A stretch of 64,000 nucleotides of DNA from Candidatus Parcubacteria bacterium (GTDB lineage Bacteria > Patescibacteriota > Minisyncoccia > Minisyncoccales > JAGLUP01), in the NCBI GenBank assembly GCA_023134715.1, contig JAGLUP010000004.1, positions 1,301 to 65,300 of the forward strand, read 5' to 3'. The translations under genes and the position numbers were made by a program. The notes beneath the pieces are model-generated. The model was given only the letters and a program-made list of their open reading frames with translations. It was not told the DNA's origin and did not search any database. This document shows, piece by piece, positions 4,775 to 16,923 of the stretch (position 1 is its first letter; every line of letters begins with the position of its first letter).

Positions 4775-4853
4775 GGAGCGGGGCGGTAAGTTAATTGGCA
4801 AACTCCAGGACCTGTCACTCTTGGAAATGCGGGTTCGAATCCCGTCCGCTCCA
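4775..4853 (+). tRNA. tRNA-Asp(GTC)-like gene, aberrant (possible pseudo-tRNA)
   Basis: The T arm GCGGG-TTCGAAT-CCCGT, acceptor 3' CCGCTCC, D arm AGTT-AATTGGCA-AACT and loop CTGTCAC (anticodon GTC) resemble bacterial tRNA-Asp. However, the 5' acceptor is duplicated (GGAGCGG then GGCGG). The anticodon stem pairs only if the loop is 8 nt (CAGGA-CCTGTCAC-TCTTG). Confidence 0.45.
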
Positions 4854-5311: not shown

Positions 5312-6898
5312 CTAAAAAGAAATTTCAAGGGCAGTGGCTACACTAGCTAAAAATTGTTTGATTGTTTCAAAAAATGTTTGCGGTTCCTCAAAAAAAGGAG
5401 CTGCTTCTTCTGACTGTGGTTCTTGCATAGGCGCAAATTCTTTTTGAGGCATCATCATACCTTGTTCTGGAGGTGTCATTTCTATATATCCTTCTGGAGG
5501 TGTCATTTCTATATATCCTTCTGGAGGTGTCATTTCTATATATCCTTCTGGAGGCGTCATCATTTGTTTCATTTTCTCTGCGTCTTCCGAACTCATCATG
5601 CCTTCTTTGACAGAAAAATTAAAACATTCTTCCATATGTTCAGGATTATCGCAATACGCTTTGCATTCTTCCGGCGTCTGACAACCGCCCGGACCGCCTG
5701 GACCCTCTGGTCCAATTTTTTTAACCATTTCAACTTCTTCCGGCTTTACTAATCCCATTTTCTGACCAAATTCCATACATTCCTGCATATGTTCCGGGTC
5801 TTGACAATAAGCATCACATTCTTCCGGCGTCTGACAACCGCCCGGACCGCCCGGACCGCCAGGCCCAAATTGTTCTCCTATTTTTTTTGTCTCTTCTGCT
5901 TCTTCAGAACTCATAAACCCGGCTTTAACAGCAAATTCCATACATTCCTGCATATTATCAGGATTATTACAATATGCTTCGCATTCCTCTTTTCCCTGAC
6001 ATCCGCCAGGACCGCCAAAAATTCCTGCTTTCGCCATCTTCCTTACTTGTTCTGCTTCTTCAGAGCTCATAAACCCGGCCGCCTCGCCAAAATTAACACA
6101 CTCTTCCATATGCTCTGGCTGGGAACAATAGATGTCGCATTCTTGTTTGTTTCCACACATCGGCGGTTTAATGCCTTTTTCCAATGCCTGAAGCATCATT
6201 CTTGCCTCTTTTTCTTCCTCTGCCGGCATAAGTCCATACTTAAGACCAAACTCTATACACTCTTTCATATGGTCTGGGTTATTACAATAAGCATCGCATT
6301 CCTCTTTTCCCTGACATCCGCCTGGTCCTTTCCCTCCGGTCTTACGAATCATTCCTGCTTCTTCAGAGCTCATAAACCCGGCCGCCTCGCCAAAAGTAAT
6401 ACATTCTTCAAGATGTTCTATCTGAGAGCAATAAATATCACACTCTTGTTTTCCGCGGCAAGGAGGTGGTTTTACTCCTTTTTTAATCGCTATTAGAGCT
6501 TGTTCTGCTTGGGCAAGTTCTTCCGGGGGAATCAAGTTATGCTCTTTGCCAAAAATAATACACTCTTCCATATGCTCCGGCTCATCACAATATATCTCGC
6601 ACTCTTCCTGACCTTGACAGCCGCCTGGGCCAGCCATTGTCTCGAGCATCTCGAGCATTTTCCTGTCTTTTTCTATTTCTTCCTGAGAAAGTAAATTATG
6701 GGCTTCAGCAAAATCAAGACAGGCCTTAGTATTTTCTTCTAAATCGCAATATGCCTCACATTCCTCCATACTGACGCAATTTCCTAATTCAGGAATAGGA
6801 AAATTAACATCAGATAGCAAATCCTCCTCAGCAAACGCAAAACCGCAAAAACCTAAAAAAATAAAAGTAAAAATAAAAACAAAATAAACCTTTTTCAT
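5312..6898 (-). CDS. Secreted cysteine-rich repeat protein (8 x four-Cys module; C-terminal TPPEGYIEM x4)
   Basis: A signal peptide (MKKVYFVFIFTFIFLGFCGFAFA) is followed by eight repeats of about 45-55 aa, of the form (GPGG)C-x4-5-C-x3-C-x8-9-C, e.g. GPGGCQGKEECDAYCNNPDHMKECIEFG. A proline/glutamate-rich tail follows. Confidence 0.85.
   Translation of the reverse strand: MKKVYFVFIFTFIFLGFCGFAFAEEDLLSDVNFPIPELGNCVSMEECEAYCDLEENTKACLDFAEAHNLLSQEEIEKDRKMLEMLETMAGPGGCQGQEECEIYCDEPEHMEECIIFGKEHNLIPPEELAQAEQALIAIKKGVKPPPCRGKQECDIYCSQIEHLEECITFGEAAGFMSSEEAGMIRKTGGKGPGGCQGKEECDAYCNNPDHMKECIEFGLKYGLMPAEEEKEARMMLQALEKGIKPPMCGNKQECDIYCSQPEHMEECVNFGEAAGFMSSEEAEQVRKMAKAGIFGGPGGCQGKEECEAYCNNPDNMQECMEFAVKAGFMSSEEAEETKKIGEQFGPGGPGGPGGCQTPEECDAYCQDPEHMQECMEFGQKMGLVKPEEVEMVKKIGPEGPGGPGGCQTPEECKAYCDNPEHMEECFNFSVKEGMMSSEDAEKMKQMMTPPEGYIEMTPPEGYIEMTPPEGYIEMTPPEQGMMMPQKEFAPMQEPQSEEAAPFFEEPQTFFETIKQFLASVATALEISF
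5467..5560. repeat. 27-bp tandem repeat x3.5 (coding)
   Basis: CTGGAGGTGTCATTTCTATATATCCTT is repeated. It encodes the (M)TPPEGYIE repeats of the Cys-rich protein. Confidence 0.9.
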
Positions 6899-7261: not shown

Positions 7262-9262
7262 CTATAAATCTAATTCCTGAACTTTTTCCCAATCAATTTC
7301 ATTCAGTACGGTGATTTTATTCTCGCCGATAATATATAAATAATCATTAATGTAAATCGCTCTTCTGGCAGAAATCTGGCTTATTGCTTTTTTCAACTGT
7401 AGTTTGTCATTTTCATAGGAAAAAATATAACCTCCTTTACTGCCGGGCAGGAAAAATATATTATGCTTTTTATCCAGTAAAAAAGCGTGATGGGTATTTA
7501 AAATATCAGACCAGTATTCATTTAAAAGATATTTATCGCGCTCAATAGGTTTTTCCGCAAACTCCACATCAAATAAAGAAATCTTTATTTTTGAGCCCTC
7601 CTTGCCTATGCCCAAAATTTTGTCTTTAGACAGAGGATGCAAATAAGCGGAATAGCCAGGAATTTTTAATTCCCCTTTTAGTTCTGGATTTTTTGGGTCA
7701 GACAAATCTAAAACATAGAAAGGGTCAATCTGCCTATATGTAACAACATATCCTTTGTCTTGAATAAATCTAACCGAGTAAATTCTTTCAGTTAAACCCA
7801 TATCTTTCACAGCTCCCTGAATTTTCAAATTTTTATCCAAAACATAAACATCATTAGCGCTCTCTCCCCTGCCCATGAACCAACTGTCTCCAATTGTAAT
7901 CGCAACTCTTAAATTGCCTTTGTATTCATCTAATGCAAACTGATTTAAAAGACGGCCAGGCACTTTTCCTGCGGCCTTAACCTTAAATCCTTCCAGTCCT
8001 ATTTTTATAATACCTGTTTTTTCCAACTCTCGCTTATGTTTTTTATAATAATCATTCATTCTGTTTTCCATTTCATTCTCTATTCTTAAACGCTCATCTC
8101 TGTCTAAAGAAGCCATATATTTTTCCAAAATTATTTGAAATTCAATAAGTTTTGCCTGCTGGCTAATATCATATTCCTCTAACTTATCAAGCTTGGCAAT
8201 AACATAACTCGGAAAAATATCTCGCGCTTCTTCTTTCAAAAAATCAGCAAAAAATTTAATCATACTTTCATAATAAGAATAAGTAGCGTATATTGAATTC
8301 TCTGACATATAAACAATTGAAGAGCCGGAAGACCCGACAAAAGAAATCTTTTTTTCTACTTTTCCGGATTTAGGGTTTAAAATTGTTGCGGTAAAAACAA
8401 CATCTATCGGTACTGGAGAAACTGGATGATAAATATCTACACATTTTATCTCAAGCTCTGCTCCGTTAACTGTCAAAGGTCTTATCGGACAAGGATGATA
8501 AATATTTATCCTGTCCTTGGTGACTAAATATATTTTATTTTTATAAAGCCGCGCGCTGACTAAATGACTATTATCCTCCAGCTCTATATCCCATTTCTTT
8601 TCAGGTGATTTTGAATCAGAAACATCATAACCATAAATATCCTGCCCAGAAAAAATAATCAAATTATTTCCATCTAAAAGTAAATTTCCTGTTTGAGCAA
8701 TGCTGGAATCTATATCTAAGTCAGACGGAGGAAACGCCTTTATTATTTTTGTTTCTCCCTTGACTGAAGGATGCGGCAGCGCTATCATTTCCCTCATTCC
8801 CCATCCATAATAACTTTTTGCTTGAGAAAAATAAATTTCTTTGCCGTCTGTTTTAACAATATCTGGCTCGTCAATTCCCGCAACCTGAACATTGGTATCG
8901 GAAACTCTTCCTATCACTGCCTCACCCGCTCCTTTCCTCAGCTCTCCGGTTTGCTCCAACATCGGAACCGACATATCACTGACAGAACGGACCGCTCCCA
9001 AGCTAAAACCATAACTTGAATCAAGCGCTCCTTCTACTAAATAATCTTTAAATTCCTGCTCTGAAGAAAATGTTTTAATGTCCTCTACCTTTTCAGAGGA
9101 AAGAGGAGCTTGAGATAATGGAATTTGAGGAAAATGAAGCGAAAGATTTTGAGCTAAATCTTCACAAACTAAAAAAATGCCGCAAACGGCAACGAAAAAA
9201 GCAGCTACAGCAACAGCTAATTTCCCGTCAACTTCTTTTTTTAAAAAATTTGTCATATTCAT
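7262..9262 (-). CDS. Secreted beta-propeller domain protein (COG4880-like)
   Basis: It has an N-terminal anchor (LAVAVAAFFVAVCGIFLV). The motif TNVQVAGIDEPDIVKTDGKEIYF and the later YLHPL...GIGKEG...SLFDV are as I remember them for the secreted beta-propeller family. Confidence 0.65.
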   Translation of the reverse strand: MNMTNFLKKEVDGKLAVAVAAFFVAVCGIFLVCEDLAQNLSLHFPQIPLSQAPLSSEKVEDIKTFSSEQEFKDYLVEGALDSSYGFSLGAVRSVSDMSVPMLEQTGELRKGAGEAVIGRVSDTNVQVAGIDEPDIVKTDGKEIYFSQAKSYYGWGMREMIALPHPSVKGETKIIKAFPPSDLDIDSSIAQTGNLLLDGNNLIIFSGQDIYGYDVSDSKSPEKKWDIELEDNSHLVSARLYKNKIYLVTKDRINIYHPCPIRPLTVNGAELEIKCVDIYHPVSPVPIDVVFTATILNPKSGKVEKKISFVGSSGSSIVYMSENSIYATYSYYESMIKFFADFLKEEARDIFPSYVIAKLDKLEEYDISQQAKLIEFQIILEKYMASLDRDERLRIENEMENRMNDYYKKHKRELEKTGIIKIGLEGFKVKAAGKVPGRLLNQFALDEYKGNLRVAITIGDSWFMGRGESANDVYVLDKNLKIQGAVKDMGLTERIYSVRFIQDKGYVVTYRQIDPFYVLDLSDPKNPELKGELKIPGYSAYLHPLSKDKILGIGKEGSKIKISLFDVEFAEKPIERDKYLLNEYWSDILNTHHAFLLDKKHNIFFLPGSKGGYIFSYENDKLQLKKAISQISARRAIYINDYLYIIGENKITVLNEIDWEKVQELDL

Positions 9263-11025: not shown

Positions 11026-12093
11026 TCAAGCGCCCGCCTTAATTTCAATAACATCGCCGTCTTGGACAATATAGCCCTTGCCAACAGTGTTAATCAGGCC
11101 TTTTTCCTTAGCTTTGACAAAGCCACAAACATTAATAAGTTCCTGTGAATTAATAACATCTGCCTTAATGAAACAATTTTCAAAATCGCTGTGAATCACG
11201 CCGCCCGCTTGAGGAGCTGTTGCTCCCCTCTTTAATGTCCAAGCGCGGGTCTCATCAGGCCCTGTAGTAAAAAATGTTATCAAATCAAGCAGTTCATAAG
11301 ATTCTTTTATTAAAACATCTAACCTTAAATCAATCGGCAAGCCGAGAGAAGCTCTTTCTTCCGGCTTAAATTCCATTGCCTCAAATTCAGCAAGCACATC
11401 AATAAAAACAAAACGCCAATTATTTTTTTCAAAAACCTGTAAAACATTTTCAGAAATATCTTTTTCCTCTCCGTTTAATAAATACAATCTTGGCTTTAGG
11501 GTTAAAAATTGATACTTATTTAAACATCTTTTTTCATCTTTATCCCAGTCCTGCTCGATTAAAAGACGCTCATCTCCTAAAAAACTCTCTGCTCTTTTTA
11601 GCGCTTCCAATTCTTTAATAATTTCCTTGTCTCCTGTTTTGGCGTCTTTTTCTAATGATTGAATTCTTTTTTCTACTGCGTCCAAATCCTTAACAATCAT
11701 TTCCATATCTAAAATTTCTTTATCTCTTAAAATATCAACACTTGATTGAGTATTAATAATTTTTTCATTCTCAAAACAACGCAAAACATAAATAATAGCG
11801 TTCACCTCTCTGATGTTTGCCAGAAATTTATTTCCCAAACCTTCACCCTTGCTCGCGCCCTTTACCAATCCGGCAATATCAACAAACTCCACTATCGTAT
11901 AAACTTTTTTAGCGGAATTAGTTAATTCAACAAGTTCATCCACTCTTTTATCGGGAACCGCGACAACCCCAACATTGGGGTCAATTGTGCAAAAAGGATA
12001 ATTAGAGCGTTCAACCTGTTTTTTAGTAATGGCTTCAAATAAAGTTGACTTTCCCACATTGGGCAAGCCAACAATTCCAATAGATAATGACAT
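11026..12093 (-). CDS. ychF: Redox-regulated ATPase YchF
   Basis: G1 motif GIVGLPNVGKST and a C-terminal RAWTLKRGATAPQAGGVIHSDFE... segment. Confidence 0.9.
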   Translation of the reverse strand: MSLSIGIVGLPNVGKSTLFEAITKKQVERSNYPFCTIDPNVGVVAVPDKRVDELVELTNSAKKVYTIVEFVDIAGLVKGASKGEGLGNKFLANIREVNAIIYVLRCFENEKIINTQSSVDILRDKEILDMEMIVKDLDAVEKRIQSLEKDAKTGDKEIIKELEALKRAESFLGDERLLIEQDWDKDEKRCLNKYQFLTLKPRLYLLNGEEKDISENVLQVFEKNNWRFVFIDVLAEFEAMEFKPEERASLGLPIDLRLDVLIKESYELLDLITFFTTGPDETRAWTLKRGATAPQAGGVIHSDFENCFIKADVINSQELINVCGFVKAKEKGLINTVGKGYIVQDGDVIEIKAGA

Positions 12094-12094
12094 A

Positions 12095-12373
12095 TTATTT
12101 TTTTATAATTTTTATTGCTTTGCCTTGTATTAATGCCTCTGTTATTTTCTTGCGGGCGGAGATTAAAGTTCGCTGAAGAGTGCTTTGAGAAATTTTCATT
12201 TTCTTGGCAGCTTTAATTTGTTTTAAAGCTTTTAAATCACACAATCTAATCGCTTCTAATTCATCTACACTCAAATTCACCTCTTCTAATATGGAAAGCG
12301 GCACAGCTCTCGGCTTAAAATAAGTAATATTTGGGTTAAACAAAACCCTTCTTGGTTTTATTGGCCTTGGCAT
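12095..12373 (-). CDS. DUF134 (UPF0251) putative DNA-binding protein
   Basis: The MPRPIKPRRV... start and a C-terminal HTH-like ISQSTLQRTLISARKKI. Confidence 0.7.
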   Translation of the reverse strand: MPRPIKPRRVLFNPNITYFKPRAVPLSILEEVNLSVDELEAIRLCDLKALKQIKAAKKMKISQSTLQRTLISARKKITEALIQGKAIKIIKK

Positions 12374-13212
12374 ATTTTTAATTCATCGTAAATATCTTTA
12401 ATCTCATTCTTTGCTTTTAGATTTGTTTCCATAATTGGCGTTAAATTGGAAATGGCTTGGAAGATTTTTTTATCATAAGATATTTTGCCTAAAAATTTAC
12501 CTCGGGCCCATTTTTCCATTCTATTGCTAAATTTTGGATTTATATCCCATTTATTGACCACTACGCCATAAGGAATTTTAAAATGATTAACCACTTCTAA
12601 AACCCTTTTTAAATCAGCAAACCCTGAAGGAGTCGGCTCTGTGATTAAAATAGTAAAATCAGCGTCTTTTAATGCCGCGGTTACCGGACATCCTGTGCCA
12701 GGAGCTGAATCAATAATCATAATAATTTTTCCTTTGTCCGCCATAGCTTTAGCGGCGGCGGATGCTTCGCTTTTTATCTCGTCCACAACCTTGCCTGAAC
12801 CTGTTTCTCCTGGAAAAAGCTGGCCAGAAACCAAAGGAAAATTATACCTTGTCCTTTTAATCCTGATTTCTCCATTCTGAACCGGCTTTAATTTAATAGC
12901 TCCTTTCGGACAAATAACCTCGCAAGCGCCGCAACCCTCGCATAAAAACGGATTTAACGCAGGTTTACCCTGAGGCGTCAACCGAAGGGCGCTAAAGCGA
13001 CAATTCTCAACGCATAATCCGCAGCCATCACATTTTTTATAATCAATCTCTGGTTTTGCGGAAGTAATAACCGGAATAATTTTATCCCAGCTTTTTATTC
13101 CTCCCAACCAAAGAGCTAAATTTGGAGCGTCAGCATCGCAATCCACTGCCACTACTTTTCTTTCTTTAGCAAAAAGCATTGCCAGCGCTGAAGTCAACAT
13201 TGACTTTCCCAC
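12358..13212 (-). CDS. MinD/ParA-superfamily P-loop ATPase with 2x[4Fe-4S] ferredoxin insert (COG1149-like)
   Basis: CDGCGLCVENC and CEGCGACEVIC motifs. The P-loop (ASGKGGVGKS) is encoded upstream of the track's GTG start. The frame is open up to 13266 but contains no ATG/GTG/TTG. Confidence 0.8.
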   Translation of the reverse strand: MGKSMLTSALAMLFAKERKVVAVDCDADAPNLALWLGGIKSWDKIIPVITSAKPEIDYKKCDGCGLCVENCRFSALRLTPQGKPALNPFLCEGCGACEVICPKGAIKLKPVQNGEIRIKRTRYNFPLVSGQLFPGETGSGKVVDEIKSEASAAAKAMADKGKIIMIIDSAPGTGCPVTAALKDADFTILITEPTPSGFADLKRVLEVVNHFKIPYGVVVNKWDINPKFSNRMEKWARGKFLGKISYDKKIFQAISNLTPIMETNLKAKNEIKDIYDELKICQGQ

Positions 13213-13270
13213 TCCCCCTTTTCCACTCGCAATTGTAATTTTTTTTATTTCTTTTTTGATGTATATTTAT

Positions 13271-13376
13271 AAAAACGAAGAAAACAAATTTTGAAATCGT
13301 GGGGCATCCCGATAGGTGAAAGCTATCGGGAGGTAGGGCGCGGTTAGGGGGAAACGATTTCAAAATTTAGTTTTCG
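13271..13376. repeat. Structured intergenic repeat, family A, copy 2
   Basis: It has the same arms and the same GTAGGGCGCGGTTAGGGGGAAACGATTT core as copy 1. The apical hairpin is replaced by CCCGATAGGTGAAAGCTATCGGG. Confidence 0.85.
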
Positions 13377-13382
13377 TAGTTT

Positions 13383-14225
13383 TTAAAATTTAAAATTAAG
13401 CAATTTACCTTTTGAATAAGCCCTTACTAATTCTTTAGAATAAGGAATTTCTTTTTTAATTTTTGTTTTAAATTTTTTAGCGATTTTTTCAACTTTTGTT
13501 TTATCTCCTAAGTCTGCCTGATTTAAAATTATTTTAATCGGTGTTTTAAGCTTTTGGCATAAATCCAAAATTAAACTTAAATCCATTGCTCCCATTGGCG
13601 TTGGTTCAGTAATAATATAAGCGAAATCAACATCTAAAAGAGCGTTAATTACAGGGCAATGAGTGCCAGCCGCCGTATCAAACAAAATATAATCTGCTTT
13701 TACTTTTTTAGCAAAATCTAAGGCAAATTTTTTTGTCTGAGCCACAACCGGCCCTGTTTCTTCAAGTCCTGCATTTGCTTGTCCTGTCGCCAACCAAAAA
13801 TTCTTCTCAATAGGATTAACAAAAATCTGGCCAATTTCTTGTTTTTGAGATTTAATAGCTTTATAAGGACAAACAATCCAGCACGCGCCGCAGCCAGAAC
13901 ATAAATCTTTAACAAATATCGGATATTTCCCTGCCTGTTGAAAAATAGCGTTATTTCGACAGGTTCTAGCGCACAGACCGCACTTTCTGCATTTTGATTT
14001 AATTAATTTTGGAAACTCCGCAAAAACCCTTTGCATCGGTTTTCTTAATTTCTGGCCAAGTAATAAATAGTCATTAGGGCATTCCACGTCACAGTCGCAA
14101 AGAATAACTTTCTTGCCTTTTTTTATTAATTTATTAGCAAATAAAACAGCGACCGTGGATTTTCCTACACCACCCTTGCCGCCGGAAATTGCTATCTGTT
14201 TAATTTTCTTTCGCATTATTCTCAA
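13383..14225 (-). CDS. MinD/ParA-superfamily P-loop ATPase with 2x[4Fe-4S] ferredoxin insert (paralogue)
   Basis: SGGKGGVGKST, CRKCGLCARTC and CSGCGACWIVC. Confidence 0.85.
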   Translation of the reverse strand: MRIMRKKIKQIAISGGKGGVGKSTVAVLFANKLIKKGKKVILCDCDVECPNDYLLLGQKLRKPMQRVFAEFPKLIKSKCRKCGLCARTCRNNAIFQQAGKYPIFVKDLCSGCGACWIVCPYKAIKSQKQEIGQIFVNPIEKNFWLATGQANAGLEETGPVVAQTKKFALDFAKKVKADYILFDTAAGTHCPVINALLDVDFAYIITEPTPMGAMDLSLILDLCQKLKTPIKIILNQADLGDKTKVEKIAKKFKTKIKKEIPYSKELVRAYSKGKLLNFKF

Positions 14226-15435
14226 TTAATTTTAATATACCATTAAGATTTTTATCTGGGACTATTCGAACTTTAATACCAAAATTTTCTAAACCCTGTT
14301 TAGCGTTAGGTCCTATCTCGCGTGTAATTACCTTATCGGCGCGAACCGTCTTGGCAAACCTTGCTCCGTGAGGCAAATCCTTGTTAAAGTAAGGATTTTT
14401 TAAGAACTTTTTTAATAAAATTTTGCTCTCTTTCTGGTCAATTATTAAATATTCGCTTGAACCAAATTGAGGAGCAATTTCCTGTTTTTCAATAGGAATA
14501 ATTGTTCTCTCCCCTATTTTTTCAGGACCGATTTTTTCAAAACCTTTTAAATCTCCTATCTTCTTTCCCAATTTAGGCGAAACTATTGTTTTAGCCATAT
14601 TATACGCTTCAATTGAAATAATTATTTGTTTCAGCTCTGGGATATTATTCAGCAATCTATCTTCCAATGTCTCTGTTATTTTCTGAACCTGCTCAACTTT
14701 TAATTTTGGAGGAAGCTTGATTTTAATCTCAGCAAAATTAAAAGAACCAATCATTCTGGTTTTTAATTCGGCAATTTCTATCTGATGAGAAACGCAAATT
14801 TTTCTAATCCTTTGCTCCACATCTTTATTGGCTACATCCAATAATGAATCAGTGATTTCTTTTCCTATTTGCCAGGATTCAAAAAGAATATAACCGCCGA
14901 TAAACAAAGCAATTACAGCATCAGCTAAATTAAAATAAGGCGCTAAAAAAAGCCCGATTAAAACACCTATTGAAGACAAAGCGTCAGCCCTTGAATGTTC
15001 AGCGTCAGCCACTAAAGCCAAGCTCTTAAATTTTCCGCCGTAATAAAATTTTAATCTGGCTAAAATTTCAGTGACCACAATAGAGATAACCACTACAGCG
15101 ATTGCTCCGATGCTGAGTTCAACTGTTCCTTCTCCAAAAATTCTCATAACCGCTTCATATAAAATCCAAATACCAGAAATTGCCAAAAGTATTGCGACCA
15201 AAAAACCAGCTAAACTTTCCGCTTTCCAATATCCATAAGGGTGCTTTTCGTCAATTGGTTTTTTAGCTGTTCTTAATCCTAAAAAAGTAACAAAGGAAGA
15301 AAATACATCCAAGCTTGAATGTATTCCATCGGCAATCAAAGCCACACTGCCGGTTAAAAAACCAAAAAACAGCTTGGCAATGCCCAAGCCAAGATTTACA
15401 AAAACGCTAATAATGGAAACAGATTGAGGAGTCAT
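14200..15435 (-). CDS. Cation diffusion facilitator transporter fused to a C-terminal NifX/NifB-like (FeMo-cofactor-binding-type) domain
   Basis: The CDF core carries LIADGIHSSLDV and HSRADALSS. The last ~110 aa (IIPIE...APQFGSSEYLIIDQ...ITREIGPNAKQGLENFGIKV) resemble the next gene's NifX-like fold. Confidence 0.7.
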   Translation of the reverse strand: MTPQSVSIISVFVNLGLGIAKLFFGFLTGSVALIADGIHSSLDVFSSFVTFLGLRTAKKPIDEKHPYGYWKAESLAGFLVAILLAISGIWILYEAVMRIFGEGTVELSIGAIAVVVISIVVTEILARLKFYYGGKFKSLALVADAEHSRADALSSIGVLIGLFLAPYFNLADAVIALFIGGYILFESWQIGKEITDSLLDVANKDVEQRIRKICVSHQIEIAELKTRMIGSFNFAEIKIKLPPKLKVEQVQKITETLEDRLLNNIPELKQIIISIEAYNMAKTIVSPKLGKKIGDLKGFEKIGPEKIGERTIIPIEKQEIAPQFGSSEYLIIDQKESKILLKKFLKNPYFNKDLPHGARFAKTVRADKVITREIGPNAKQGLENFGIKVRIVPDKNLNGILKLIENNAKEN

Positions 15436-15863
15436 ATTCTTCCTCTGCCAAAACCGCGGCCAGAACCAGGACCACGTCCAGGACCACGCCTGTAAGGCAG
15501 TGTCTCAGCTATTTCCTGAAGCTTTCCTTCTTGATATTCTTTTAAAACATCCTTTACCTTTGCTCCCGGCTTGCCAATAAAAACCTTTATTCCAGAAGCG
15601 CTTAAAACCATAATAGCGTTAGGCCCAATATTTCCGGTAATCACTGCCTTAACTTTTTCATCAGCCACAATCTGGGCAGCTGTTACGCCAGCTCCCCTCA
15701 TTGCTTCTACTCCATGATTCTTAATAGCTTTAATTAATTTTCCTTTGCTGTCAACAAATAAAAAATATACAGCCCTGCCAAAACGCGGGTCTAAAAACGC
15801 GTTTAAATCCCTGCCTTCAGCAGTAATACAAATTTTTGTCTTTTCAGATATTTTCTTCGTCAT
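15432..15863 (-). CDS. NifX/NifB-C-terminal-like (dinitrogenase FeMo-cofactor-binding family) protein with RG-rich tail
   Basis: ICITAEG...LDPRFGRAVYFLFVD...ITGNIGPNAIMVLSASGIKVF; tail RGPGRGPGSGRGFGRGRI. Confidence 0.75.
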   Translation of the reverse strand: MTKKISEKTKICITAEGRDLNAFLDPRFGRAVYFLFVDSKGKLIKAIKNHGVEAMRGAGVTAAQIVADEKVKAVITGNIGPNAIMVLSASGIKVFIGKPGAKVKDVLKEYQEGKLQEIAETLPYRRGPGRGPGSGRGFGRGRI

Positions 15864-15872
15864 AATAAAATT

Positions 15873-16088
15873 TTATCTCTCTCTGGTCATTGGCTGACCG
15901 CATTTTGAACACTTTCTTTCATAACAAGGAACTCCTCTTTGATGAGCAGCGCTTTCCCCGCAACTTGGACAAACACACTTGCCTGCCGGCCCTAATCCAA
16001 AACCACCGGGCTGGCGGCCGCGGCCGCCTCCACCAGGCGCTCTAAATCTTCCGCCGGGAGAAATTGAATTATCTCTTCTATTTTGCAT
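15873..16088 (-). CDS. Small Gly/Arg-rich, four-Cys protein (DUF5320-like)
   Basis: This 71-aa protein has an N-terminal [18 protein letters not shown] segment and two CxxC pairs (CPSC...CSKC). Confidence 0.5.
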
Positions 16089-16170
16089 ATTATTTACCCT
16101 GTTAAAGGTGAATTATTAATTAATAATACTTCGACTCTTGTTTTGAGTATATACCCATTATAATACCTTG

Positions 16171-16923
16171 TCAAGTTTTTATTCCGATTGGACAATGGTC
16201 TGAACCCATCACTTTATTGAGAATAAAAGCTTTTTTCAGCTTCATAGACATATTTTTTGAAACAAAAATATAATCCAATCGCCAACCCAAATTTCGCTCC
16301 CTGCAATTAGCAATATGCGGCCACCATGTATAATTTCCCGTTTTTTTATTAAATTTTCTAAAAGTATCGATAAACCCCATTTTAATTACTTTATCAATCT
16401 GCTTTCTTTCTTCTGAAGTAAACATTATATTCTTTTGATTTTGTTTCGGTCTCGCTAAATCAATTTCCTGATGGGCTACATTGAAATCTCCCACCAAAAC
16501 AATTTTTTGATTCTTAATTTTTTTCAAATAGTTTAAAAGATATTTATAAACTTCCAGCTTGTAACCTAAGTTTTCTTTTTGTCTTCCACCGTGCGGCAAA
16601 TAAATATTGATTAAAGTAAAATCAGGATATTTTAGTTTTAAAATCCTGCCCTCTTGGTCAAATCTTTTTAAACCTAATTTATTTTCTACTTTTAACGGCT
16701 TTTTCTTGGAATAAATCGCAACTCCAGAATAGCCCTTTTTAACGGCCTGATTAAAATAAAAATAATAACCCTTTGGCTGAAGCAAATCATCTGGCAGCTG
16801 CTCTTTTTGCGCTCTTATTTCCTGCAAGCAAACAATATCTGCTTTGGATTTTTTAAACCAATTCAAAAAATTCTTTTTACAAGCCGCTCTAATTCCGTTT
16901 ACATTCCAAGATATAATCTTCAT
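16171..16923 (-). CDS. xth: Exodeoxyribonuclease III
   Basis: MKIISWNVNGIRA..., CLQE, and SDHCP at the C-terminus. Confidence 0.9.
   Translation of the reverse strand: MKIISWNVNGIRAACKKNFLNWFKKSKADIVCLQEIRAQKEQLPDDLLQPKGYYFYFNQAVKKGYSGVAIYSKKKPLKVENKLGLKRFDQEGRILKLKYPDFTLINIYLPHGGRQKENLGYKLEVYKYLLNYLKKIKNQKIVLVGDFNVAHQEIDLARPKQNQKNIMFTSEERKQIDKVIKMGFIDTFRKFNKKTGNYTWWPHIANCRERNLGWRLDYIFVSKNMSMKLKKAFILNKVMGSDHCPIGIKT

Follow-up and report, generated by a model that had tools for sequence, protein, structure and literature searches.

A cluster of six minus-strand genes at positions 12095–16088 of a 64,000-nucleotide stretch of Candidatus Parcubacteria DNA (contig JAGLUP010000004.1; the whole stretch is called the window below) is very probably the Patescibacterial (Parcubacteria) form of the orange protein (ORP) operon of Desulfovibrio, with an added cation diffusion facilitator (CDF) transporter fused to a NifX-like domain (CDF::NifX). 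This identification is based on the domain assignments, on the closeness of the NifX-like carrier to MTH1175 and the Desulfovibrio gigas ORP, and on the co-occurrence of an ATPase pair with a NifX-like gene in all 20 loci compared. Moreover, in a Desulfobacteraceae locus (L012; labels of this kind denote loci of relatives) the gene of a small protein with six Cys and one His (Cys6His) immediately precedes the ATPase pair, which is the arrangement of orp5-orp4-orp3. The original prediction, made from the sequence of the window, considered the cluster to be uncharacterised and without an assigned function. This has to be corrected, as its core matches the known ORP complex of Desulfovibrio, though the physiological role of the latter is not established. 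What is new here is the in-operon CDF::NifX transporter, the lack of MrpORP, the probable regulator DUF134 and the Arg/Gly-tailed parts, in a form belonging to the Candidate Phyla Radiation (CPR). The features of the region are as follows.

16146–16174, minus strand: promoter-like site TTGACA-17-TATACT ahead of the first gene, agreeing with the consensus at 11 of 12 positions
15873–16088, minus strand: small Cys6His protein, 71 aa, probably Orp5-like, of the Cys-type branch of DUF5320-related proteins
15432–15863, minus strand: NifX-like carrier, 143 aa, of the ORP / MTH1175 / IssA type
14593–15435, minus strand: CDF transporter part of the fusion, aa 1–281, six transmembrane segments (TM) and the ZT_dimer cytoplasmic domain
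14200–14592, minus strand: linker and fused C-terminal NifX-like domain of the CDF protein, aa 282–411, with the fold starting from about aa 309
13383–14225, minus strand: ATPase-1, MinD/Mrp-class with a 2x[4Fe-4S] insert, Orp3/Orp4-like
13270–13385, strand not assigned: hairpin insertion of 116 nt between the ATPase genes
12358–13266, minus strand: ATPase-2, a paralogue of ATPase-1 with the same 2x[4Fe-4S] insert
12095–12373, minus strand: DUF134 (UPF0251) small helix-turn-helix (HTH) protein, PF02001

All six open reading frames (ORFs) were recovered where the original prediction had placed them. Adjacent genes overlap by 4, 17–26 and 16 nt or are separated by a 9-nt gap, the exception being the gap between the two ATPase genes. 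This layout fits an operon, and the six genes probably form one minus-strand transcription unit. The promoter-like site is a strong match to the sigma-70-type consensus, and no more than that; it is the best one on the minus strand within 11900–16400.

The NifX-like carrier matches PF02579 (Nitro_FeMo-Co) with 76.7 bits. Its best PDB sequence match is MTH1175 (E = 5.7e-19), followed by the D. gigas orange protein 2wfb (E = 2.4e-17). The alignment with 2wfb scores 66.5 bits over aa 8–116, hence a single-domain NifX-like protein of the Orp8 / D. gigas ORP type is present. The last 24 residues (aa 120–143) form a tail with eight Gly, six Arg and an isoelectric point (pI) of 12, the pI of the whole protein being 10.1, and similar Gly/Arg-type tails are found in the orthologues and in L006, L008, L009, L012 and L023. 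The carrier thus has the two features of IssA and the IssX proteins, a NifX-like domain of the IPR003731 type and a cationic, Gly-rich, high-pI tail. The NifX-like assignments, which the original prediction had left to stand or fall by profile searches, held in both the profile and the fold tests.

Each ATPase consists of a CbiA/ParA/MinD-type P-loop domain with two Fer4 motifs, in agreement with the initial description of two paralogous MinD-type ATPases carrying 2x[4Fe-4S] inserts. The products of the two adjacent genes are 36% identical, and both have the P-loop and the eight ferredoxin Cys that characterise Orp3 and Orp4. In an alignment of 47 family members from 23 loci and the window, the deviant Walker A motif GKGGxGK, D43/D45, the eight ferredoxin Cys, the Walker B residue D182 and an EPT motif are invariant or nearly so. 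Beyond the ferredoxin Cys, 45 of the 47 sequences have Cys189 in a GTxCP motif seven residues past D182, and Cys44 is present in 34. The AlphaFold2 (AF2) model of ATPase-1 has a mean confidence score (pLDDT) of 84.5, with a part of the ferredoxin insert modelled at low confidence. Its nearest folds are FleN, FlhG and MinD, and also ATPase-type HypB, ApbC, ParA/Soj and BchL; no solved structure was found for the family of MinD-like ATPases with a Fer4 insert. The MinD models TIGR01968 and TIGR01969 yield only 42–49 bits against cut-offs of 202–213, and there is no MinC or MinE among the ORFs of the cluster. Since the MinD equivalog scores are far below the cut-offs, and both sequence and fold are MinD/Mrp-like rather than NifH-like, we consider both proteins to be MinD/Mrp-class dimerising ATPases with redox modules, and not bona fide MinD or NifH. 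ATPase-1 ends with a short amphipathic segment, KGKLLNFKF.

The start codons of the two ATPase genes differ in clarity. ATPase-1 probably starts at the ATG at 14216, which corresponds to the NCBI product of 277 aa. The ATPase-2 frame is open back to a TAA at 13267–13269, with no ATG, GTG or TTG before Walker A; at 13213–13269, ATA and ATT codons occupy the positions where the relatives, whose proteins begin MKKIVIASGKGG or MNTKKIRKLVISSGKGG, have ATG. An independent Logan assembly contains the identical ATPase-2 sequence, and the gene caller applied there yielded a 280-aa product without the P-loop. Either translation of ATPase-2 begins at a non-canonical codon, or the gene lost its start in recent times. 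Given also the hairpin insertion upstream of it, ATPase-2 may be weakly expressed or impaired in this genome.

The small protein encoded by the first gene was initially described as a four-Cys protein; instead, it has six invariant Cys and one invariant His (C38, C40, C43, H49, C55, C60, C63). These form a C-terminal module CxCPxC-x5-H-x5-C-x4-CxxC, and the N-terminal half is Gly/Arg-rich with a pI of 12. The six Cys and the His are invariant across members of the family from CPR, Dehalococcoidia and Desulfobacteraceae. By profile search the family has at least 3510 relatives, many of which match PF17253 or have been named DUF5320 by NCBI, a naming that arises through the Gly-rich N-terminus. 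In Pfam, the window protein has no PF17253 match even at E up to 10, and its L002 orthologue scores 17.9 bits with the N-terminal half only. DUF5320 proper, which has a coiled-coil C-terminus and is encoded just upstream of the cluster in relatives, is absent from the window. Hence the earlier label "DUF5320-like" is fair at the level of the family, because so many relatives match PF17253 or bear this name, and it fails for the window copy, which lacks a Pfam match. By its sequence family and gene position, this protein is probably Orp5-like.

For a cross-phylum comparison, one genome per GTDB species was scanned with the ATPase alignment as the query, yielding 20 full-length relatives. These loci were selected by the ATPase similarity only, irrespective of the neighbours, which were then annotated with hidden Markov models (HMMs) built from the CPR proteins. 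They come from five archaeal lineages (Methanobacterium, Micrarchaeota, Bathyarchaeum, Methanomethylicota, Nitrososphaerota) and many bacterial ones (Dehalococcoidia, Bacteroidales, Desulfobacteraceae, Coriobacteriia, Spirochaetes, Synergistota, Planctomycetota, Clostridia). As several contigs are short, the following counts are lower bounds.

Two ATPase paralogues: 20 of 20 loci, adjacent in 18
NifX-like gene close by: 20 of 20 loci
Third ATPase, Mrp-like and a weaker match, in many cases fused to a NifX-like domain: 16 of 20 loci
DUF134 near the ATPase match: 9 of 20 loci
DUF5320 near the ATPase match: 6 of 20 loci
Cys6His protein near the ATPase match: 5 of 20 loci
CDF::NifX near the ATPase match: 2 of 20 loci, Methanobacterium (L006) and CPR (L023)

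The association of DUF134, NifX-like and MinD-ferredoxin proteins named in the original prediction is thus borne out, with the ATPase pair and the NifX-like gene as its universal part and DUF134 in about half of the loci.

Within the CPR, to which the host belongs, as the original prediction of a minimal genome had implied, the cluster was followed by a metagenome scan with the CDF protein. This yielded 28 loci with the gene order DUF5320, Cys6His, NifX-like, CDF::NifX, (extra NifX-like), ATPase-1, variable spacer, ATPase-2, DUF134. The order holds wherever the contigs reach, several of the contigs being near-duplicates. The extra gene is a short NifX-like ORF seen between CDF::NifX and ATPase-1 in L086, L087, L090, L092 and L107. 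Both ATPase-1 (at least 70% identity) and the CDF protein (at least 62%) are conserved across at least 120 sequence clusters each.

The ORP complex, known since 2011, is an anaerobe-specific, redox-regulated assembly of Fe-S ATPases and a NifX-like protein. In D. vulgaris Hildenborough its named components are Orp3, Orp4, Orp5, Orp7, Orp8, Orp9 and the regulator OrpR. Orp3 and Orp4 resemble each other and contain two [4Fe-4S] ferredoxin motifs each, Orp8 is the orange protein with a single NifX-like ("Di-Nase") domain, and in Orp9 (MrpORP) a Di-Nase domain has been joined to an Mrp/NBP35 ATPase (PMC6345978, PMC3897727, PMC8359166, PMC4641369). Orp3, Orp4 and Orp8 co-purify, MrpORP transfers Fe-S clusters to them, and a homologue of Orp5 binds a [2Fe-2S] cluster (PMC6345978, PMC8359166, PMC4641369). 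The orp genes form two divergent sigma-54 operons, which OrpR activates only when the redox potential is very low; the complex has been proposed to take part in cell division (PMC6345978, PMC3897727, PMC8359166, PMC4641369). The D. gigas ORP binds a [S2MoS2CuS2MoS2] cluster non-covalently (PMC6345978). In D. alaskensis, Dde_3197–3199 co-vary with feoA and flavodoxin, and Dde_3197 and Dde_3198 respond to copper surfaces (PMC10533852). Complex formation, Fe-S loading and redox-restricted expression are properties taken from this literature on the Desulfovibrio homologues.

In common with the D. vulgaris system, the window cluster encodes a pair of neighbouring MinD-like paralogues with a 2x[4Fe-4S] module in each ATPase, as well as a NifX-like homologue of the orange protein that consists of a single domain. 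Its small Cys-rich protein, encoded upstream of the ATPases, is probably the counterpart of Orp5. Both systems are restricted to anaerobes, and both use the NifX-like domain as a fusion partner. However, the window has neither an Mrp::Di-Nase protein nor, at the cluster, a sigma-54 enhancer-binding regulator, whereas its operon includes genes for the DUF134 HTH protein and the CDF::NifX-like membrane transporter. Further differences are the cationic Gly/Arg tail of the carrier, one co-directional operon in place of two divergent ones, and the CPR host. As regards Orp9/MrpORP, the HMM that detects Mrp-like genes in 16 of the 20 other loci found no third MinD/Mrp-like ORF in the 64-kb window, and the Orp9 model NF041136 gave partial matches only, 57 bits against the cut-off of 450.

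The CDF protein scores 221.3 bits with TIGR01297 (cut-off 82.35), 163.8 bits with PF01545 (Cation_efflux) and 39.6 bits with PF16916 (ZT_dimer). Together with the H/D-x3-D motifs in TM2 and TM5 (ADGIHSSLD and ADAEHSRAD), this places it in the CDF superfamily. In the predicted metal site A, D43, H147 and D151 are invariant, and H39 is nearly so, being replaced by D in some orthologues and by N in the Methanobacterium protein; the site is HD-HD in the window and DD-HD or ND-HD in relatives. In the cytoplasmic domain C214 is invariant and H217 nearly invariant. The best equivalog models, MamB, MamM, MntE and FieF, yield 141–153 bits against cut-offs of 350–500. Judged by site A and these scores, the protein fits the Fe/Zn/Mn branch of CDFs without the metal being fixed. 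By the established CDF topology the protein transports outward and its C-terminus lies in the cytoplasm, so that the NifX-like domain is located there as well.

The C-terminal domain was initially a weak call, 24.4 bits with Nitro_FeMo-Co at aa 318–402, just under the cut-off of 26.3. Orthologues carry precomputed PF02579 matches, and the profile of 21 orthologous C-termini matches MTH1175, PH0822, TM1290 and TM1816 at E from 3e-6 to 6e-5. The AF2 model of the domain has a pLDDT of 83.7, and in a Foldseek search with it the top 13 PDB matches all have the NifX/NafY/ORP fold at TM scores of 0.5–0.74, including PH0822, TM1816, Ta1041, ORP, NifX and NafY. Both the profile and the fold thus assign the domain to PF02579, and the original reading of the gene as a CDF exporter with a second NifX-like domain is confirmed. 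A conserved linker of about 25 aa, GFExIGPxKxGxR, precedes the domain, which is about 100 aa long. It has no Cys and a pI of 9.8; K306, R310, K362 and R365 are invariant, and R359 is nearly so.

The fusion is not a peculiarity of one contig. The window protein is 100% identical to an NCBI protein from a Candidatus Parcubacteria bacterium, and its close homologues come from Parcubacteria, Nealsonbacteria and the Patescibacteria group. The family comprises at least 120 full-length clusters at 62–100% identity, mostly from Patescibacteria, and among 1.84 billion library representatives this specific C-domain is joined to the CDF core in at least 27 clusters defined at 50% identity. In addition, two loci, one from Methanobacterium (L006) and a further one from CPR (L023), have a CDF::NifX gene beside the ATPase pair, its product being 30–34% identical to the window protein in alignments that span both parts. 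These alignments agree with a single origin of the three fusions as well as with separate ones. The physical tie to a metal transporter, pointed out in the original prediction, is hence conserved rather than accidental, given the CPR synteny and the recurrence in the methanogen cluster. The literature searched contains no description of a CDF::NifX/PF02579 fusion, nor of ORP in Patescibacteria.

The DUF134 gene was called correctly, its product matching PF02001 with 84.9 bits (cut-off 27). Residues 33–81 have weak matches to sigma-70 region-4 / extracytoplasmic-function-type HTH domains. In the CPR relatives DUF134 is the last gene of the cluster, and its product is a probable regulator of the latter. 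No gene for an enhancer-binding protein was found in or beside the cluster; no search for a −24/−12 promoter was made. In Methanobacterium (L006, 5504–6136) and Bacteroidales (L024, 4892–5476) there are fusions DUF134::zinc-ribbon::Gly-rich::Cys6His, whose Cys6His module is the one that in the window is a free protein. In view of this fusion, DUF134 and the small Cys protein may well work jointly as a metal- or cluster-sensing regulator.

Two further types of fusion were seen in the relatives. Dehalococcoidia (L009, 6932–7495) and Desulfobacteraceae (L012, 1155–2159) encode a NifX-like domain followed by a Gly/Met/Arg-rich region and a coiled coil, which is the DUF5320-like part; we consider these to be IssA-like architectures within ORP-type clusters. 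In L012 a second NifX-like domain follows. The same locus encodes an Mrp::NifX fusion with the architecture of MrpORP.

The comparison with other known systems gives the following picture. Pyrococcus furiosus IssA belongs to the same NifX-like clade, and its cationic Gly-rich tail has been proposed to hold thioferrate; Vaccaro et al. (2017) also described an uncharacterised "IssX" clade with Gly-rich tails (PMC5524996). Like IssA and IssX, the window carrier is a NifX-like domain followed by a disordered, cationic, Gly-rich tail without a set of Cys ligands, and its nearest solved relative, MTH1175, is the protein used to model IssA. Unlike in IssA, the tail is Arg/Gly-rich with few aromatic residues and has 24 aa rather than about 70. 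The portion of PMC5524996 used here does not describe IssA as operonic with MinD-Fer4 ATPases or a transporter. Compared to MrpORP, the fusion partner of the NifX-like domain is a membrane CDF and not a soluble Fe-S scaffold, and neither of the Cys/His motifs of MrpORP, CxHFGHCE and CDH, is present in the CDF-borne domain. The CDF part shares with FieF/YiiP, MamB/MamM and MntE the six-TM Cation_efflux core, the ZT_dimer domain and the H/D-x3-D site A in TM2 and TM5, and differs from them by the extra C-terminal NifX-like domain. The ATPases resemble ATPase-type HypB, ApbC/Mrp/NBP35, CooC and the NifH-like reductases in being dimerising P-loop proteins with a deviant Walker A and a Cys after Walker B, and, like the metallochaperone NTPases of the SIMIBI class, they are associated with metal-cluster carriers. 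However, the HypB, ApbC, CooC and NifH families have no internal 2x[4Fe-4S] ferredoxin insertion, and the window ATPases lack the signatures of Mrp (CxxC), CooC (CxC) and NifH (Cys97/Cys132).

What lies between the two ATPase genes varies among the CPR relatives: in L005, the closest of them, there is nothing and the genes overlap, and in the window the place is taken by the insertion at 13270–13385. The latter is a near-perfect long hairpin with inverted arms of about 30 nt and a GC-rich inner hairpin CCCGATAG-N7-CTATCGGG; the folding energies are −35.8 and −43.2 kcal/mol (z = −7.9 and −7.6). It belongs to no Rfam family, giving sub-threshold noise only, and no further copies were found in the 64-kb window. 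Two independent Logan contigs break inside the hairpin. It could be an element resembling a miniature inverted-repeat transposable element, a terminator or attenuator, or a small RNA. In many CPR relatives the spacer contains a gene for a 171-aa CMD/AhpD-like protein (PF02627), as in L001 (8067–8582), L002 (8215–9989, with additional LigD_N and HD genes), L090, L093, L095, L097 and L105; an accessory redox role, similar to that of peroxiredoxins, is possible for this protein.

The cluster is flanked by genes for an ExoIII-family nuclease upstream and YchF downstream, neither of which is a conserved neighbour in the relatives. A few kilobases downstream, at 7262–9262 of the minus strand, lies a gene for a 666-aa Beta_propel (PF09826) protein, and at 5312–6898 of the same strand there is a 528-aa ORF with no Pfam match at E up to 1e-5; as far as seen, both are unrelated to the cluster. 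A tRNA gene at 4780–4853 of the plus strand scores 48 bits in Rfam, and ARAGORN names no anticodon for it. In the fold the stem is extended and the anticodon loop, CCUGUCAC, has 8 nt; the gene may encode tRNA-Asp(GUC) with an extra base in the loop.

The original proposal that the cluster serves the trafficking of a metal or an FeS-type cofactor agrees with the ORP literature and is a reasonable hypothesis. In the specific mechanism that we suggest, which we hold tentatively and at somewhat less than even chances, Fe-S handling is coupled to metal export. The two ATPases would form a heterodimer, as Orp3 and Orp4, and would use ATP binding and hydrolysis together with electrons from the ferredoxin modules to load, remodel or release anionic metal-sulfide species. 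The cargo, most likely an Fe-S or thioferrate-like species, would bind non-covalently to the NifX-like domains, which are basic and Cys-free, with the Arg/Gly tails stabilising it. The NifX-like domain borne by the CDF transporter would dock the same machinery at the membrane, so that the cluster pool would be coupled to the export of a divalent metal, Fe2+ or possibly Zn2+. In strongly reducing, sulfide-rich surroundings such coupling would buffer both iron and sulfide and provide Fe-S units, while DUF134 and the Cys6His protein, as its metal- or cluster-sensing partner, would regulate the operon. Taken as one combined statement, ORP-type identity with this mechanism seems to us reasonably likely.

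Several observations lead to this scheme. An anionic cargo is suggested by the conserved Lys and Arg residues and high pI of the Cys-free CDF domain and by the still higher pI of the tails; it is also suggested by the non-covalent Mo-Cu-S cluster of ORP and by the thioferrate proposal for the cationic tail of IssA. The link to iron comes from the CDF models that score best (MamB, MamM, MntE and FieF) and from the co-variation of Dde_3197–3199 with feoA and flavodoxin, which is circumstantial. The proximity of the ATPase fold to HypB and ApbC and the additional Cys in 45 of 47 sequences point to a metallochaperone-like switch, and the Mrp::NifX, CDF::NifX and NifX::Gly-rich::coiled-coil fusions to the NifX-like domain being a recurrent docking or cargo module.

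A different role, which we regard as unlikely, is that of a cell-division or positioning system, where the MinD-like ATPases would be membrane-binding spatial regulators, the Fe-S modules would do no more than sense the redox state and adjust division to anaerobic life, and the transporter and carriers would be accessory. Indeed, the best fold matches are FleN, FlhG and MinD, Walker A is deviant in both ATPases, and the KGKLLNFKF end of ATPase-1 resembles the membrane-targeting sequence of MinD; in Desulfovibrio, the orp genes are putatively involved in cell division, MrpORP is polar, and Orp3 and Orp4 have C-terminal amphipathic helices (PMC6345978, PMC3897727, PMC4641369). However, the MinD equivalog scores of 42–49 bits are far from the cut-offs of more than 200, and neither MinC nor MinE is encoded in the cluster. 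The ATPases are accompanied by NifX-like carriers in 20 of 20 loci and by Mrp-type Fe-S carriers in 16 of them, and the extra conserved Cys in the ATPase core and the CDF::NifX and Mrp::NifX fusions point to metal handling. Quite unlikely, too, is that the transporter is an ordinary Zn/Co/Cd/Fe efflux pump whose NifX-like domain is a cytoplasmic metal sensor, the neighbouring ORP-like genes being independent of it. Its CDF core is canonical with a typical HD-HD or DD-HD site A, and CDF cytoplasmic domains, such as those of YiiP and MamM, are allosteric metal sensors. On the other hand, the CDF gene overlaps the NifX-like gene by 4 nt and ATPase-1 by 17–26 nt, the gene order is the same in all CPR contigs that reach far enough, a CDF::NifX of about 30% identity stands beside the ATPase pair in a methanogen, and the fused domain and the neighbouring carrier belong to one fold family.

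The handling of Mo/W-Cu thiometallates, with the carrier binding a Mo(W)-Cu-S cluster for Mo/W or Cu homeostasis or for the supply of a pterin cofactor, we consider improbable. Mo, W and Cu(I) are not known to be among the substrates of CDF transporters, CPR genomes are metabolically minimal, and no molybdate, tungstate or molybdopterin gene was seen in the cluster or among the scanned neighbours. What this explanation has in its favour is the homology of the carrier (E = 2.4e-17) to the D. gigas ORP, the bearer of the Mo-Cu-S cluster (PMC6345978), and the copper-surface response of Dde_3197 and Dde_3198; however, the D. alaskensis transcriptome also shows the co-variation with the iron markers feoA and flavodoxin (PMC10533852). 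A remnant of nitrogenase-type cofactor maturation (NifX/NifB-C/NifH-like), serving a nitrogenase-like enzyme elsewhere in the genome, is most improbable. The Nitro_FeMo-Co matches, faint Fer4_NifH matches and the presence of NifX and NafY among the fold matches might suggest it, but the ATPases are MinD/Mrp-like rather than NifH-like by both sequence and fold, and the carrier groups with MTH1175 and ORP and not with NifX or NafY, hence the link to nitrogenase is rejected. As stated in the original prediction, no nitrogenase is seen among the cluster genes and the neighbours scanned against Pfam; the examined parts of the window contain no nif gene, and the same cluster is present in many non-diazotrophic anaerobes.

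The ORP-type identity with coupling to metal export has its own difficulties. For the CPR members the mechanism is inferred, and the Mo-Cu cluster of the D. gigas ORP is but a possible in vivo cargo of an ORP-type carrier. Cell division is the link preferred in the ORP literature. As CDFs carry their substrates out of the cytoplasm, detoxification or buffering would suit them better than the supply of clusters. The residues of site A do not separate Fe2+ from Zn2+, Co2+ and Cd2+, and the transporter does not reach the MamB, FieF or MntE equivalog cut-offs. The carrier tail is short compared to that of IssA (24 aa against about 70) and poor in aromatics. The 64-kb window has no Orp9 (MrpORP), the protein that loads Orp3/4 in Desulfovibrio. 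The putative homology of the small protein to Orp5 is drawn from position and family rather than from a direct alignment with DVU2105 or Dde_3197. Finally, as ATPase-2 has no canonical start, the full system may be non-functional in this particular genome.

While the ORP core system was already known, its CPR form has not been described in the literature searched, and the CDF::NifX protein joined to the ORP cluster is a new clue to the role of the system. The fusions CDF::NifX, Mrp::NifX, NifX::Gly-rich coiled coil and DUF134::Cys6His give concrete testable predictions: that the NifX-like domain is a common handle recognised by the ATPase pair, that the cargo is an anionic metal-sulfide species, that the system is linked to the flux of a divalent metal, probably iron, across the membrane, and that DUF134 works with a Cys-rich sensor. 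As the proteins of the cluster are small, their expression and testing should be feasible. A bolder generalisation, to which we give a modest chance, sees in the NifX-like domain a docking and cargo module common to all forms of an ancient machine that handles iron sulfide and is driven by ATP and ferredoxin. In CPR bacteria it would be connected directly with the CDF transporter in the membrane, giving a ferritin-independent Fe/S buffer-export (or supply) system controlled by a split DUF134–Cys6His sensor. If so, DUF134 and Cys6His would be a split Fe-S- or metal-sensing transcription factor, fused into one protein in Methanobacterium and Bacteroidales, and a function would be assigned to the long-unsolved ORP complex. 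The fact that the ORP core is kept and strongly conserved in genome-reduced CPR bacteria indicates that the system is important rather than accessory, and the CDF-wired machine, if real, may be a main route of Fe-S homeostasis in these minimal anaerobes.

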